DNA from: an uncultured Bacilli bacterium
GTDB taxonomy: Bacteria; Bacillota_I; Bacilli_A; RF39; UBA660
DNA length: 52,142 nt
Direction of reading: 5' to 3'
Assembly: GCA_944373095.1 (NCBI GenBank)
Contig: CALWAK010000002.1
Location: 1-52,142, forward strand
How positions within the stretch are numbered: the stretch's first letter is position 1; each line of letters starts with the position of its first letter. Made by a program: the position numbers and the translations under genes. Of the stretch, positions 41,655 through 51,809 are shown piece by piece. The notes beneath the pieces are model-generated. The model was not told where the DNA came from, did not search any database, and saw nothing but the letters and a program-made list of their open reading frames with translations.

Positions 41655-42090
41655 TGTTGATAACTGTGGATAACTTTAATTTTTAGCAAAAATATGGGAA
41701 AATTGGAGTATCTAAACCTGTGCATAACTTGTGATTTATCCACAGGCACTGTTGACAAATATGTTGATATTTAAAAAAAAATGATAAAAATATGAAAAAA
41801 AATAGAAAAAAATGTTAAAAAACTGTGGATAACTTTAATAAAAAAATGATATTTTTGTAGTTATCCACAGATTTATCCACAGTTTTTACTATAAAATTTG
41901 GCTAATATATCGAAAAAAAGAAAGTTATCCACAGTTATCAACAATAACGCAAACTGTGAATATCTTTAGTTATCCACATGTTTATAATTTTTTTATTATA
42001 ATTCTGTGGATAACTTTAAAATTTGGCTTATATATGTCAAAAAAATTGTGGATAACCCTGTGGATAACCTGTGGATAAAATTGTGGATAA
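41655..42090. other. oriC: Chromosomal replication origin oriC (DnaA-box cluster upstream of dnaA)
   Basis: 12 perfect TTATCCACA boxes. Forward at 41736, 41861, 41873, 41925, 41970. Reverse (TGTGGATAA) at 41665, 41824, 42005, 42047, 42059, 42070, 42082. One-mismatch boxes at 41655, 41719, 41935. A-tract-rich segment at 41760-41822. Located between rpmH and dnaA, with gene orientation diverging on either side. Confidence 0.95.
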
Positions 42091-44709: not shown

Positions 44710-44725
44710 GAATAATATTTGTTTT

Positions 44726-44756
44726 TTCGACAAATTTCAACAAAATTCGACAAAAA
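44726..44756 (+). repeat. Three tandem 10-bp direct repeats upstream of comK (candidate regulator binding site)
   Basis: TTCGACAAAT (44726-44735), TTCAACAAAA (44736-44745), TTCGACAAAAA (44746-56). An extended -10 TGATATATT follows at 44772-44780. Confidence 0.5.
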
Positions 44757-44802
44757 TTTTTGTTATATTTTTGATATATTCATTAAAGAAGGGGGAATTG
44801 GA

Positions 44803-45315
44803 ATGAATTATTTAATGAATGATATAGATGATATTTTAGAAGAGTATGAGATTAATGAGGATACATTAGCATTACTTCCAAACAGTAAATTTGAAACTAC
44901 TGTTTTAGAGAAAACAAGAGTCTTAAAAGTTAGAGATGATGCAACTAGTATCATGAAAAATAGTTGTGAATATTTTGGAAGCAGCTTAAGTGGAAGACAG
45001 AGAGGTACTACTGCACTAATTGGTGTAACACATAAAGTACCGGTTATTGTAGAAGAAAGTAGAGAACTAATATTTTTTCCTACTAATTCTCCAAGATTAG
45101 GAATATGTAGTTGGTTATCTTTTAATAATATTAAAAATTATAGAAAAGATGAAAATGGTTATGGAACAATAATAGAGTTTAAATCAGGAAAAGAAGTAAA
45201 TATTCCTTTGTCTTATGGTTCTTTAGATAATCAAATATTACGCTCTGCTAAATTAAATCTAATGTTAAAAGATAGAAAAATAAATCAGAAAAATGATATT
45301 TTATCTAAATTTTAA
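44803..45315 (+). CDS. comK: ComK-family competence transcription factor
   Basis: Aligns by eye along its length with B. subtilis ComK as recalled from memory: YEINEDTLALLP, CEYFGSSLSGRQRGT, THKVPVIVEESRELIFFPTNSP, IPLSYGSLDNQILRSAKL. Start at M29 of the track ORF, preceded by AGAAGGGGG. Confidence 0.8.
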   Translation: MNYLMNDIDDILEEYEINEDTLALLPNSKFETTVLEKTRVLKVRDDATSIMKNSCEYFGSSLSGRQRGTTALIGVTHKVPVIVEESRELIFFPTNSPRLGICSWLSFNNIKNYRKDENGYGTIIEFKSGKEVNIPLSYGSLDNQILRSAKLNLMLKDRKINQKNDILSKF

Positions 45316-48483: not shown

Positions 48484-48495
48484 GAGGTGGTAAAA

Positions 48496-50925
48496 ATGGA
48501 TAATATTAAAGGAAGAAATATAGTTGATGAAATGAAAAAATCTTTTATGAGGTATTCAATGAGTGTTATAGTATCACGAGCATTACCTGATTTAAGAGAT
48601 GGTTTGAAACCAGTTCATAGAAGAATTTTATATACAATGTTAGAAGATAGTTTAACTCCAGATAAGCCATATAGAAAAAGTGCGTCAACAGTTGGTTCTG
48701 TTTTGGCTAGATACCATCCACATGGTGATACATCTGTTTATGATGCGCTTGTAAGATTAGCGCAGGATTTTAGTTACCGTTATATGTTAGTAGATGGTCA
48801 TGGAAATTTTGGTAGTATAGATGGTGATGGCCCAGCTGCATATCGTTATACTGAGGCGCGTTTATCTAAAATATCTTTAGAATTATTAAGGGATATTAAT
48901 AAAAATGTAATAGATTTTGATGATAATTTTGATGAAACTAGAAAAGAACCTAAGGTATTACCAAGTAGATTTCCAAATATTTTAGTAAATGGTACTATGG
49001 GAATTGCTGTAGGTATGGCAACGAATATTCCTCCTCATAACTTGGGAGAAGTCATTGATGGTTGTGTTGCTTATATAGATAATCAGGATATTACAATAGA
49101 AGAGTTAATGAAGTATATAAAAGGTCCAGATTTTCCAACTGGAGCATCTATTTTAGGAAATAAAGGGATTAAGCAAGCTTATGAAACTGGGCGTGGAACT
49201 GTTACCATTAGATCTCATGCGGAGATTCAAGAAAATAATGGCAAACAGCAAATTGTTTTTACAGATATTCCATATCAAGTAAATAAGGGGGATATAAAAA
49301 GAAAGATTGCTGAATTAGCAAGGGATAAAATAATTGACGGAATTGTTGATTTGCATGATGAAACGTCTTTAAAAAATGGTACACGAATAGTGGTTCATTT
49401 AAAAAAAGATGCAAATGCAAATGTTATATTAAATAATTTATATAAACATACATCATTACAAACTACTTTTGGTATAAATTTTTTAATGTTAGATCAACAA
49501 AAACCTAGAACACTTAATTTATATGAAATTATTTCAAAATATATTGATTTTCAAAGAGAAGTTATATATCGTCGTACAAAATTTGATTTAGATAAAGCAG
49601 AAAGAAGAGTTCATATTTTAGAGGGCTATAAAATAGCTTTAGATAACTTAGATGAGGTTATTAAAATAATAAGAAATGCTGAAACTGATGTTGAAGCAAA
49701 AACAAAGTTATCACAAAATTTTGGTTTAGATGAAGTTCAAGCTGATGCTATACTTGAGTTGAAGTTACGTAGATTAACCGGTTTAGAAAGATCAAAAATT
49801 GAAGAAGAGTTAAACGAGCTATTAAAAGAAATTTCTAATTTAAAAGAAATACTATCGAGTGATAGGAAAATTTATGAAATTATTAAAAAGGAATTACTAG
49901 AAATTAAATCTAAATATGGCGATGAGCGAAGAACTGATATTGATATGACTGCTATTGATTATATAGAAGACGAATCATTAATTCCAAATGAAGAAATTAT
50001 TATTGCATTAACTAATAAAGGTTATATCAAGAGAACCACTTCAGATACATTTAAGAGTCAAAATCGTGGTGGGGTTGGTGTTAAAGGCATGACAATGAAT
50101 GATGATGATTTTGTTGAACATTTAATTACTTTGTCTACCCATGATTATGTGTTATTTTTTACAAATAAAGGAAAAGTTTATCGTTTAAAAGGCTATGAAG
50201 TTCCAGAATTTGGCCGCCAATCTAAAGGAATTCCAATTATTAACTTATTACAAATTGAGAAAGATGAAATGGTTAATAGTGTTATAAAAATTTGCAAAGA
50301 TGATGAAAATACATATTTACTTTTTGCTACTAAAAATGGACTTGTAAAGAAAACTAGTATTAGTGAATTTGAAAATATTAGGCAAAATGGAAAAATAAGT
50401 ATAACCTTAAAAGAAAATGATGAGCTTATTTCTGTAAGAAAAACGACTGGTAATAATGAAATTTTATTGGCTGCAAGCAATGGTAATATGGTCCGTTTCA
50501 ATGAAAAAGAAATTAGAGAAATGGGAAGAACAGCTTCAGGGGTTAAAGGAATTAAATTGCATAATGACTCATTTTGTATTGGTGCAGAAGTTGTAAATGA
50601 TGATGATTCCATTTTAATTGTTACTGAAAACGGATATGGCAAGCAAACAAATGTTCGCATGTTTAGAGAAACTAAACGTGGGTCAAAAGGCGTAAAAGCT
50701 TTAAATATAACTGAAAAAAATGGTAATCTTAAAGCGTTTAAGTTAGTTATACCTGATAATGATCTTATTATAATAACAGACTTTGGAACTATAATGAGAA
50801 TGCCATTAAATCAAGTTTCTAATTTAGGTAGAGCTACTCAAGGTCTAAGATTAATAAATTTAAAAGATTCACAAAAAGTTTCAACAATATCTTTAATAAA
50901 TTCAATTGTTAATGATAATGAATAA
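48496..50925 (+). CDS. gyrA: DNA gyrase subunit A
   Basis: [37 protein letters not shown] (QRDR), [10 protein letters not shown] (active-site Tyr), C-terminal beta-pinwheel repeats. ATG at 48496 follows AGGAGG; the track starts at GTG 48487. Confidence 0.97.
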
Positions 50926-51652
50926 CAATGTTTCACGTGAAACATTGTTTTTTAATATTAATAAATTAAAAAAAATTAAATTTTTATGGAAATATTTTTA
51001 ATACTAATAAATTTTTAAATCTTAATATGTTTTACGTAAAACATATTAAGATTAATAACTATTATATTTATAAATTAAGTATTTCTTTTTTTAAAAATAT
51101 TTATATAAATATACATAATGTTTCACGTGAAACATTGTGTATATATTGTTTAAATTTCAACAATTTAAAATAAAAGAACTTATATATAATTTAATCATTA
51201 AATAACACTAAATATAGTAATGTTTCACGTGAAACATTACTGGCAAATATTTAAGCTGTATAGTTATATCTAAATATATTGCATAAAATGTTAATTATGC
51301 TTATGTTTCACGTGAAACATAGGTTGTTTCTTGATATTTAATTATTAATATTAACAAAATTTTATTTAATAGATTTATTATTATATTTACAATATTAATG
51401 TTTCACGTGAAACATTAATATTAAATTACTACAAATAAATATTAGTTTTTAACAAAGATATTTAAAATTTTCTAATTATATTTTTCTATAATTTTTTCTT
51501 TATATATAATTTTTATAACTAATATTATAACAATGTTTCACGTGAAACGTTGTTATAATATTAAATTTATAAATGTTTTATTATTGCATTATTAAATTTA
51601 ACTAAAATAATTATAATATATTATAAATATATAGATGTTTCACGTGAAACAT
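50924..51652. repeat. parS: Array of eight parS-type palindromes (ParB binding sites) in non-coding DNA
   Basis: ATGTTTCACGTGAAACAT at 50928-50945, 51118-51135, 51220-51237, 51303-51320, 51398-51415 and 51635-51652. ATGTTTCACGTGAAACGT at 51533-51550. Symmetric variant ATGTTTTACGTAAAACAT at 51027-51044. The inner 16-mer equals the parS consensus TGTTNCACGTGAAACA. Copy 1 overlaps the gyrA stop codon and is followed by a T-run, so it also looks like the gyrA terminator. Confidence 0.85.
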
Positions 51653-51685: not shown

Positions 51686-51714
51686 TTGAAATATTATTTT
51701 TTTTATGTTAATAT
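51686..51714 (+). promoter_or_regulatory. Sigma-A-type promoter for the SRP RNA gene
   Basis: TTGAAA (51686-51691), 17-nt spacer ending TGT, TAATAT (51709-51714). This places the transcription start about 7 nt downstream, at the first base of the SRP RNA helix. Confidence 0.55.
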
Positions 51715-51721
51715 AATTTCT

Positions 51722-51792
51722 GTGCAACAAGTAAATAAGAAACTGGTCAGAACAGGAATGTAGCAGCCATAATTATCAATGCTTGTGTGCAC
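51722..51792 (+). ncRNA. ffs: Small (4.5S-like) signal recognition particle RNA
   Basis: GGTCAGAACA-GGAA-TGTAGCAGCC matches the conserved SRP domain IV (E. coli GGUCAGGUCC-GGAA-GGAAGCAGCC) with a GGAA tetraloop. The terminal helix GTGCAACAAG / CTTGTGTGCAC closes the molecule and is followed by TTTTTTT. Confidence 0.75.
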
Positions 51793-51809
51793 TTTTTTTA
51801 GGTGTATTT

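Follow-up and report, generated by a model that had tools for sequence, protein, structure and literature searches.

Clusters of parS sites, the bacterial centromeres, are known near the chromosomal replication origin (oriC) of Bacillus subtilis, Streptococcus pneumoniae (four sites), Pseudomonas aeruginosa (parS1-4), Corynebacterium glutamicum (ten sites) and Streptomyces. The DNA analyzed here, a 52,142-bp window that constitutes an entire contig of an uncultured Bacilli bacterium (23% GC), carries such a cluster directly downstream of gyrA. It resembles the known clusters in its 16-bp consensus, TGTTTCACGTGAAACA, its origin-proximal location and its several copies, but differs from them by packing eight copies into 730 bp of a single non-coding spacer, by a post-gyrA position that is conserved across the Bacilli clade, and by a copy number that changes rapidly, from 4 to 11, within this clade. 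Six of the eight copies are embedded in perfect or one-mismatch palindromes of 26 to 44 bp whose arms differ from one copy to the next, a pattern that most likely arose as a side product of a known error in DNA copying and not as a new functional element.

In the sopC locus of the F plasmid and in other plasmid centromeres, a ParB-family protein likewise binds an array of 16-bp inverted repeats, a binding that is predicted in the case of the window. The sopC locus, however, truly repeats a 43-bp unit in tandem, flanks included, whereas the window array has unrelated spacers and flanks that are unique to each copy.

Mutation by template switching at quasi-palindromes was reportedly described by Ripley (1982) and by Lovett. 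Such switching between the arms of inverted repeats is an established replication error, which homogenizes and expands the repeats, acts more strongly with longer arms, and may copy several bases at once (PMC5941160, PMC8794818). The parS sites discussed below resemble quasi-palindrome systems (Ripley 1982; the thyA and lacZ quasi-palindrome reporters of E. coli; PMC5941160, PMC8794818) in their homogenized arms, in mutations apparently copied across the dyad, in a possible multi-nucleotide change confined to one arm, and in an enrichment of perfect inverted repeats that strengthens with arm length. Unlike in the reporters, the putative seed is here a protein-binding palindrome held perfect by selection, and a seed of this kind would tie the process to fixed sites for an indefinite time and make it visible across phyla. 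In yeast, template switching expands inverted repeats at the sites of dimeric transcription factors (PMC13100816), hence also at palindromic protein-binding sites; these lie in eukaryotic promoters where an effect on expression was demonstrated, whereas parS arrays are bacterial centromeres and, in contrast to both experimental systems, are considered here from sequence alone.

Clusters of parS and template-switch mutagenesis are each already known, and the link between them is apparently new: searches combining parS with cruciform, hairpin or extended palindrome returned no paper describing parS in longer, copy-specific palindromes or relating parS to template switching. If the rule proposed below holds, a protein-binding palindrome kept perfect by selection would act as a permanent seed for replication-driven palindrome extension, tying centromere biology to a mechanism known mainly from reporter genes.

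The parS Array and Its Copy-Specific Palindromes

The spacer between gyrA and ffs, the gene for the small signal recognition particle (SRP) RNA, is 785 bp long, non-coding, and holds all eight canonical parS sites. Six of them match the 16-bp consensus at every position, one at 15 and one at 14 of the 16, where 0.15 sites would be expected by chance, and a scan of the contig found no further parS-like sites elsewhere on its 52 kb. The original prediction held that each copy sits inside its own longer palindrome with copy-specific flanks. All eight copies are indeed found where it placed them, and the limits that it gave stand for copy 1 (50924..50949, core 50929-50944) and copy 4 (51216..51241, core 51221-51236), both perfect palindromes of 26 bp, as well as for copy 6 (51391..51422, core 51399-51414), a perfect palindrome of 32 bp. 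Two extents had been set too short: the perfect palindrome of copy 2 (51018..51053, core 51028-51043) spans 36 bp instead of 30, and the palindrome of copy 7 (51520..51563, core 51534-51549), which includes one core mismatch, spans 44 bp instead of 42. Copy 3 (51109..51144, core 51119-51134), missing from the earlier list, is perfect over 20 bp (51117-51136) and belongs to a 36-bp quasi-palindrome with one T.G mismatch (51116/51137). The palindrome of copy 5 (51302..51321, core 51304-51319) is limited to 20 bp, and copy 8 (51635..51652, core 51636-51651) consists of the 18-mer shared by the copies and nothing more (18 bp).

Two irregularities noticed earlier in the cores were confirmed. The core of copy 2, TGTTTTACGTAAAACA, carries the symmetric changes C>T and G>A in its two half-sites, and keeps its dyad within the 36-bp perfect palindrome. 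Copy 7 carries a single asymmetric A>G at 51549, and the resulting T.G is the sole mismatch of its 44 bp. The same change at the last core position (GAAACG followed by TT) is found in at least four separate copies or lineages (window 51549; copy 4 of locus L131; sister-clade copies 3 and 4, e.g., L147 5122 and L160 5174), which suggests either a mutational hot spot or a variant that is tolerated or weakly favored.

Arm length varies between 0 and 14 bp within the array. Outside the shared 18-mer, the symmetric runs of copies 1 to 8 measure 4, 9, 1, 4, 1, 7, 13 and 0 bp, for a sum of 39, and the four longest perfect palindromes of the 52-kb contig are all parS copies. The array is not an assembly artefact, since two independent assemblies (L133 and L134) recover it, as does an identical 400-nt contig from another sample. 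Its copies start 83-135 bp apart and are separated by unrelated spacers. Tandem Repeats Finder detected no array-wide tandem period, and the copies do not form a head-to-tail repeat; a sopC-like, tandem-repeat centromere is ruled out by the absent period together with the unrelated spacers.

Symmetric flanks could arise by chance in AT-rich, low-complexity DNA, and the probability of a match per position is indeed high in this spacer (about 0.37). Pseudo-centers drawn from the same spacer or from the whole window have a mean symmetric run of 0.46-0.65 (0.65 for the same spacer), and no total above 24 was obtained in 200,000 resamplings of eight, against the observed 39. When the left flank of one copy was paired with the right flank of another, the mean run was 0.68, compared to 4.9 for flanks belonging to the same copy. 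The symmetry is therefore copy-specific, and is not that of a longer shared motif.

Clustered parS Sites in Other Phyla

One genome per species was scanned for two perfect parS sites lying 60-90 bp apart, which yielded 119 loci in Actinomycetota, Bacillota, Pseudomonadota, Patescibacteria, Bdellovibrionota, Chloroflexota and other phyla. These loci comprise 343 unique perfect sites, of which 340 entered the within-locus cross-pairing control, three sites with N in their flanks having been dropped. At least five extra symmetric bp are present at 60 of the 343 sites, at least seven at 35 and at least nine at 16, whereas local composition predicts 0.7, 0.07 and 0.01 sites, respectively. The cross-pairing control gives the same picture for extensions of at least five bp: across all phyla they are found in 17.6% of own flanks versus 1.2% of cross-paired ones, and the corresponding values are 31% versus 4% in the Bacilli clade of the window. 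Taxa with a GC content above 50% show the same excess (11.5% versus 1.5%), and complex arms of 13-16 bp are present in high-GC genomes, neither of which is compatible with a coincidence of AT-rich DNA. Resampling, composition expectation and cross-pairing together rule out chance as the origin of the symmetry, and we grant it practically no credence.

Extended arms were found in Streptomyces, Mycobacteriales, Patescibacteria and Bdellovibrionales, among others, and two adjacent Streptomyces sites have 13-bp arms that differ from each other. Arm lengths extend from 0 to 16 bp with a monotonic, heavy-tailed fall-off and without any preferred length, and the longest consist of 16 bp of complex unique sequence, such as TCGGCATAGGCTGAAA and TTTCAGCCTATGCCGA, which together with the parS that they flank form a 48-bp perfect palindrome. 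Copy-specific extended palindromes are a general property of clustered parS sites, and so wide an occurrence is suggestive of a universal mutational process rather than a lineage-specific function.

Variation Among Relatives and Strains

Ten relatives at the order or family level (GyrA 63-70% identical) likewise carry a parS array right after gyrA, and closer sister groups (GyrA 76-79%) share the synteny recF-gyrB-gyrA-(4-11 parS)-tadA-dnaX. Flanks that were not conserved as palindromes in relatives had been named in advance as a sign of chance symmetry. The outcome is mixed: arm lengths vary from clade to clade and from copy to copy and no particular palindrome is conserved, but symmetric flanks are enriched far above chance in every clade examined.

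L133 and L134 are conspecific with the window, from which they differ at 66-67 positions in the 4,930 nt of recF-gyrB-gyrA (1.3% divergence). Copy 2 of both reads TGTTTCACGTAAAACA, with the right-half G>A only, to which the window adds the left-half C>T, its exact symmetric partner. This one-sided intermediate implies that the double change was made in two steps, the second of which was symmetrizing. A family of fifth copies in the sister clade exists in three states. First, the 10-bp arm of L150 contains a T/T mismatch at position 6. Second, L147 and eleven other loci have a left-arm change that turns this mismatch into A-T and yields a perfect 10-bp arm. Finally, L126 reaches a perfect 10-bp arm by a right-arm change to T-A accompanied by a change at position 4 of the right arm, which reads tataaatttt instead of tatgattttt, two changes lying 2 nt apart on one arm. 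In addition, TTTTCAA and TTGAAAA on the two sides of the parS core of the last copy have become TTTTTAA and TTAAAAA in L130. Among relatives, changes by which one arm becomes complementary to the other are therefore found in copy 2 of the window relative to L133 and L134, in the fifth-copy family (L147 and L126), and in the last copy of L130. Two-sided complementary changes in the sister clade number two, against a rough expectation of 0.1-0.3 from the divergences, an excess that is suggestive without being decisive.

Arrays also change by the loss and gain of whole copies. Among strains with identical GyrA protein, the gyrA-tadA spacer contains 4 to 11 copies (L137-L146, L121-L130, L147-L166), and this variation is due to deletion and duplication via recombination between parS copies. 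Deletions bring together left and right flanks from different copies, leaving chimeric arms of 0-2 bp, and such chimeras recur in independent samples (L121/L123, L149/L155, L151/L165/L166, L158/L163 and L162/L164). Natural point variants also break arm pairs, such as 51217 G>A in copy 4 (three samples) and a G>T that four sister strains carry in their first copy. Arm symmetry is dispensable, as these chimeras and variants attest. Copy 8 is degenerate in L133 and L134 through a 1-nt deletion.

Recombination could in principle generate the arms themselves: parS being its own reverse complement, tandemly duplicated units could recombine in inverted orientation, flip the spacer, and bring a flank to face its own reverse complement. 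Recombination between copies is clear from the variable copy number and from the chimeric flank combinations, and duplication has happened, given that copies 1, 3 and 7 have flank parts in common, as do copies 6 and 7. We nevertheless consider this origin improbable. The strain-level events are rewrites of 1-2 nt in an otherwise unchanged arm rather than spacer inversions, and none of the approximately 45 loci used in strain comparisons has an inverted spacer next to a newly symmetric copy. Furthermore, reverse complements are absent among the spacers, cross-pairing stays at chance level, the array is not a tandem repeat, and the 4-16-bp arms stop abruptly in unique sequence.

The conspecific contig L135 (4950-5356) departs from the array right after its copy 1, which has an 8-bp arm (AATAACAA and TTGTTATT on its two sides), into about 400 bp that are absent from the window contig. 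This departure reflects a genuine rearrangement or a join to another parS locus, unless the contig was mis-assembled.

Template Switching at a Selected Core as the Probable Origin of the Arms

We propose that hairpin-templated template switching, seeded by a perfect core under selection, homogenizes and extends the arms, an explanation that the sequence comparisons make probable, although well short of certain. The parS core would be an ideal permanent seed because selection for the binding of a ParB dimer would keep its 16-18 bp perfectly palindromic. During replication, the core would fold into a hairpin, and the nascent strand would briefly copy its own or the opposite arm. Each switch would turn one arm into the exact complement of the other, thereby correcting mismatches, copying a new mutation across the dyad, or extending the palindrome outward into the unique flanks. 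Point mutations, indels and recombination between copies would in turn erode the symmetry, and the joint action of switching and erosion would leave each copy with an arm sequence and length of its own. The arms would mostly be neutral by-products in an unconstrained AT-rich spacer, with the exception of copy 1, whose extended stem and T-run are probably used as a gyrA terminator.

This model accounts for arms that are specific to each copy and vary broadly in length, for their presence across phyla and in genomes of differing GC content, for the one-sided intermediate and the single-arm rewrites, and for the tolerated loss of arms. A palindrome-copying mechanism was among the explanations initially put forward, and it is supported by the intermediate of copy 2 in conspecific strains and by the single-arm rewrites that restore symmetry in sister strains. 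It also implies that symmetric, seemingly compensatory changes beside palindromic binding sites are not proof of a functional RNA or DNA structure.

Several points weigh against template switching. At a divergence of about 1%, each single event has a chance probability of about 0.01, for example that of the copy 2 base being hit with that very nucleotide. L126 is the sole multi-nucleotide, one-arm case, and two separate hits are possible at the same divergence. The T.G mismatch in the core of copy 7 is kept in both conspecific strains, and its persistence indicates that homogenization is not fast. The last copy of the sister clade holds a 7-bp arm at every locus with its own right flank (25 loci, three left-flank variants), even after a double change, which could reflect purifying selection. 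The cross-phylum sample is restricted to parS pairs 60-90 bp apart. Identical symmetric double changes would be expected from compensatory selection acting on hairpins, and the switch event itself is beyond direct observation in sequence data.

A bolder proposal regards parS throughout bacteria as an intrinsic hot spot for the growth of palindromes, a growth promoted by the ParB-parS complex itself through fork stalling at the hairpin-prone core, which would lead to template switches. We regard it as speculative and rather unlikely. Should it prove true, long unique arms would be a genomic footprint of ParB occupancy, and such growth would offer a route to the birth of new sites, of terminators, or of fragile long palindromes beside the origin. 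In a stronger variant, selection would then act on the arms as hairpins or cruciforms by which the loading of ParB or SMC is tuned.

Possible Terminators, Hairpins and Cruciforms

The extended palindromes could instead be selected as functional RNA or DNA hairpins, i.e., terminators or insulators that stop gyrA read-through and protect ParB loading sites, template switching supplying only the variation. Copy 1 makes the best case. The final two bases of the gyrA stop codon open its palindrome, and TTTT comes directly after it; an 11-pair stem (50924-50949) precedes TTTTAATATT, and its DNA fold has an energy of -8.9 kcal/mol (z = -3.8). A stable stem-loop and an immediate T-run directly after a gene constitute the sequence signature of an intrinsic terminator, and about 6 of 10 related lineages show a T-run downstream of the first copy. 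The earlier suggestion that copy 1 doubles as the gyrA terminator is consistent with this hairpin and T-run; copy 1 is likely an intrinsic terminator, possibly with a selected stem. Across clades, moreover, the inner arm of the first copy covaries, pairing ACAA with TTGT in three of them, GCAA with TTGC in L131 and TCAA with TTGA in L068.

Support for hairpin function at other copies comes from the 7-bp arm held by the last copy of the sister clade wherever its own right flank is retained, from the stability of the predicted DNA hairpins (-8 to -14 kcal/mol), and from several first mismatches that are G.T on the sense strand. At informative mismatches (n = 8), however, the count of 3 G.T, 0 A.C and 5 other is underpowered, too small for testing, and confounded by the leading-strand C>T bias. 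A convincing terminator tail is found at copy 1 only, arms range from none to 14 bp within a single array, and armless recombinant copies recur in nature. Across the 343 cross-phylum sites, 17% of extended palindromes and 13% of unextended ones have T- or A-run tails, which amounts to no enrichment, in a test that is weak for high-GC bacteria, which often use terminators without T-runs, and this weakness must also be counted against our preferred reading. No Rfam family matched within the array, and promoter-like matches in the array region are at the level of shuffled sequence. Transcribed stem-loops, proposed earlier as a possible general cause of the symmetry, find no support in these results, and the non-enriched tails lead us to reject termination as the general driver of extension. 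Selection for hairpin function is certain for no copy; copy 1 is a plausible candidate for it, as is perhaps the conserved last copy in the sister clade, and as an account of the extended palindromes as a whole we consider it unlikely.

In the relative L089, the first of the listed parS-like sites (3146) is separated from the gyrA match by about 100 nt, unlike in the window, where copy 1 adjoins the stop codon, and its arms (CTTTTTTA and TAGGAAGA, on either side of the core) pair only through three sense-strand G.T wobbles. Such wobble arms would fit a constraint at the RNA level rather than at the DNA level at that copy.

Selection could also act on DNA for the sake of ParB or SMC function, either by cruciform extrusion in supercoiled AT-rich DNA or by symmetric flank contacts that aid loading of the ParB-CTP clamp. 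The palindromes of 32-44 bp, in DNA with 85% A+T, are in principle long enough for extrusion, and positions +/-9 (A/T) are nearly invariant within the clade. The arm sequences, however, differ among copies and clades, which implies that there is no common flank optimum, and copies with arms of 0-2 bp are common; extrusion would, moreover, presumably destroy the duplex site read by ParB. We accordingly hold selection of this kind to be very improbable, and favor template switching at the selected core for these arms.

The ParB-Family Protein of the Contig

The only ParB-family gene on the contig (34132..35391, minus strand) lies directly after rsmG and encodes a protein of 419 residues with the Noc-type DNA-reading residues Q-K-N-R. 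In B. subtilis, noc occupies the same place, directly after rsmG. The best family match of the protein is the NCBIfam model for Noc (280 bits, below the cut-off of 315), and among solved structures it scores higher against Noc (202 bits) than against Spo0J (178 bits). It has neither an N-terminal extension nor an N-terminal membrane helix, and ends in a low-complexity tail of about 200 residues.

Its Q-K-N-R aligns to Q158, K164, K169 and R186 of B. subtilis Noc. These are the four positions at which specificity for parS versus the Noc-binding site (NBS) was experimentally shown to be set, and in parS-specific variants the first of the four is always R (PMC7383237). A cognate ParB of the parS type would be expected to have R173 and G201 (Caulobacter numbering), whereas the sole ParB-family gene on the 52-kb contig has Q-K-N-R. 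Q-K-N-R is conserved in at least 65 homologues of the clade, in which the N-terminal 205 residues, the DNA-binding half, are 79-94% identical and exceed GyrA in conservation. As a control, all 25 ParB genes located beside parS arrays in other taxa (25/25) have R plus G or A. No NBS site was found within the window. Given its Noc-type residues, the 419-residue protein is not the predicted reader of parS; judging from these alignments, either a true Spo0J would be encoded elsewhere in the genome, or the lineage would break the four-residue specificity rule.

Genomic Context

The closest DNA matches of the window come from chicken-gut metagenomes. The gene order on the contig is rnpA..dnaA-dnaN-comK-recF-gyrB-gyrA. 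The array adjoins the 3' end of gyrA (48487..50925, plus strand), directly after the stop codon, as it does across the whole Bacilli clade, and its spacer is bounded on the 3' side by ffs (51711..51806, plus strand). A cluster of DnaA boxes marking oriC (approximately 41655..42090), with 12 perfect TTATCCACA boxes, lies upstream of dnaA, and the array starts 8.8 kb to the right of it, an origin-proximal location as expected for chromosomal parS.

Contigs of these gut Bacilli often terminate immediately downstream of gyrA, one of them 72 nt past it, and several gyrA-bearing contigs measure about 2.9 kb. Metagenome contigs matching the array break at every parS copy. The palindromes of the array would explain these assembly breaks, and palindromes of 40-48 bp near the origin could be substrates of hairpin nucleases.

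A ComK-family gene (44719-45315, plus strand) lies between dnaN and recF, less than about 6 kb from the parS array. In S. pneumoniae, competence genes are modulated by ParB spreading from an origin-proximal parS (PMC4488948). By analogy, a similar coupling between ParB and the ComK-family gene of the window is conceivable.

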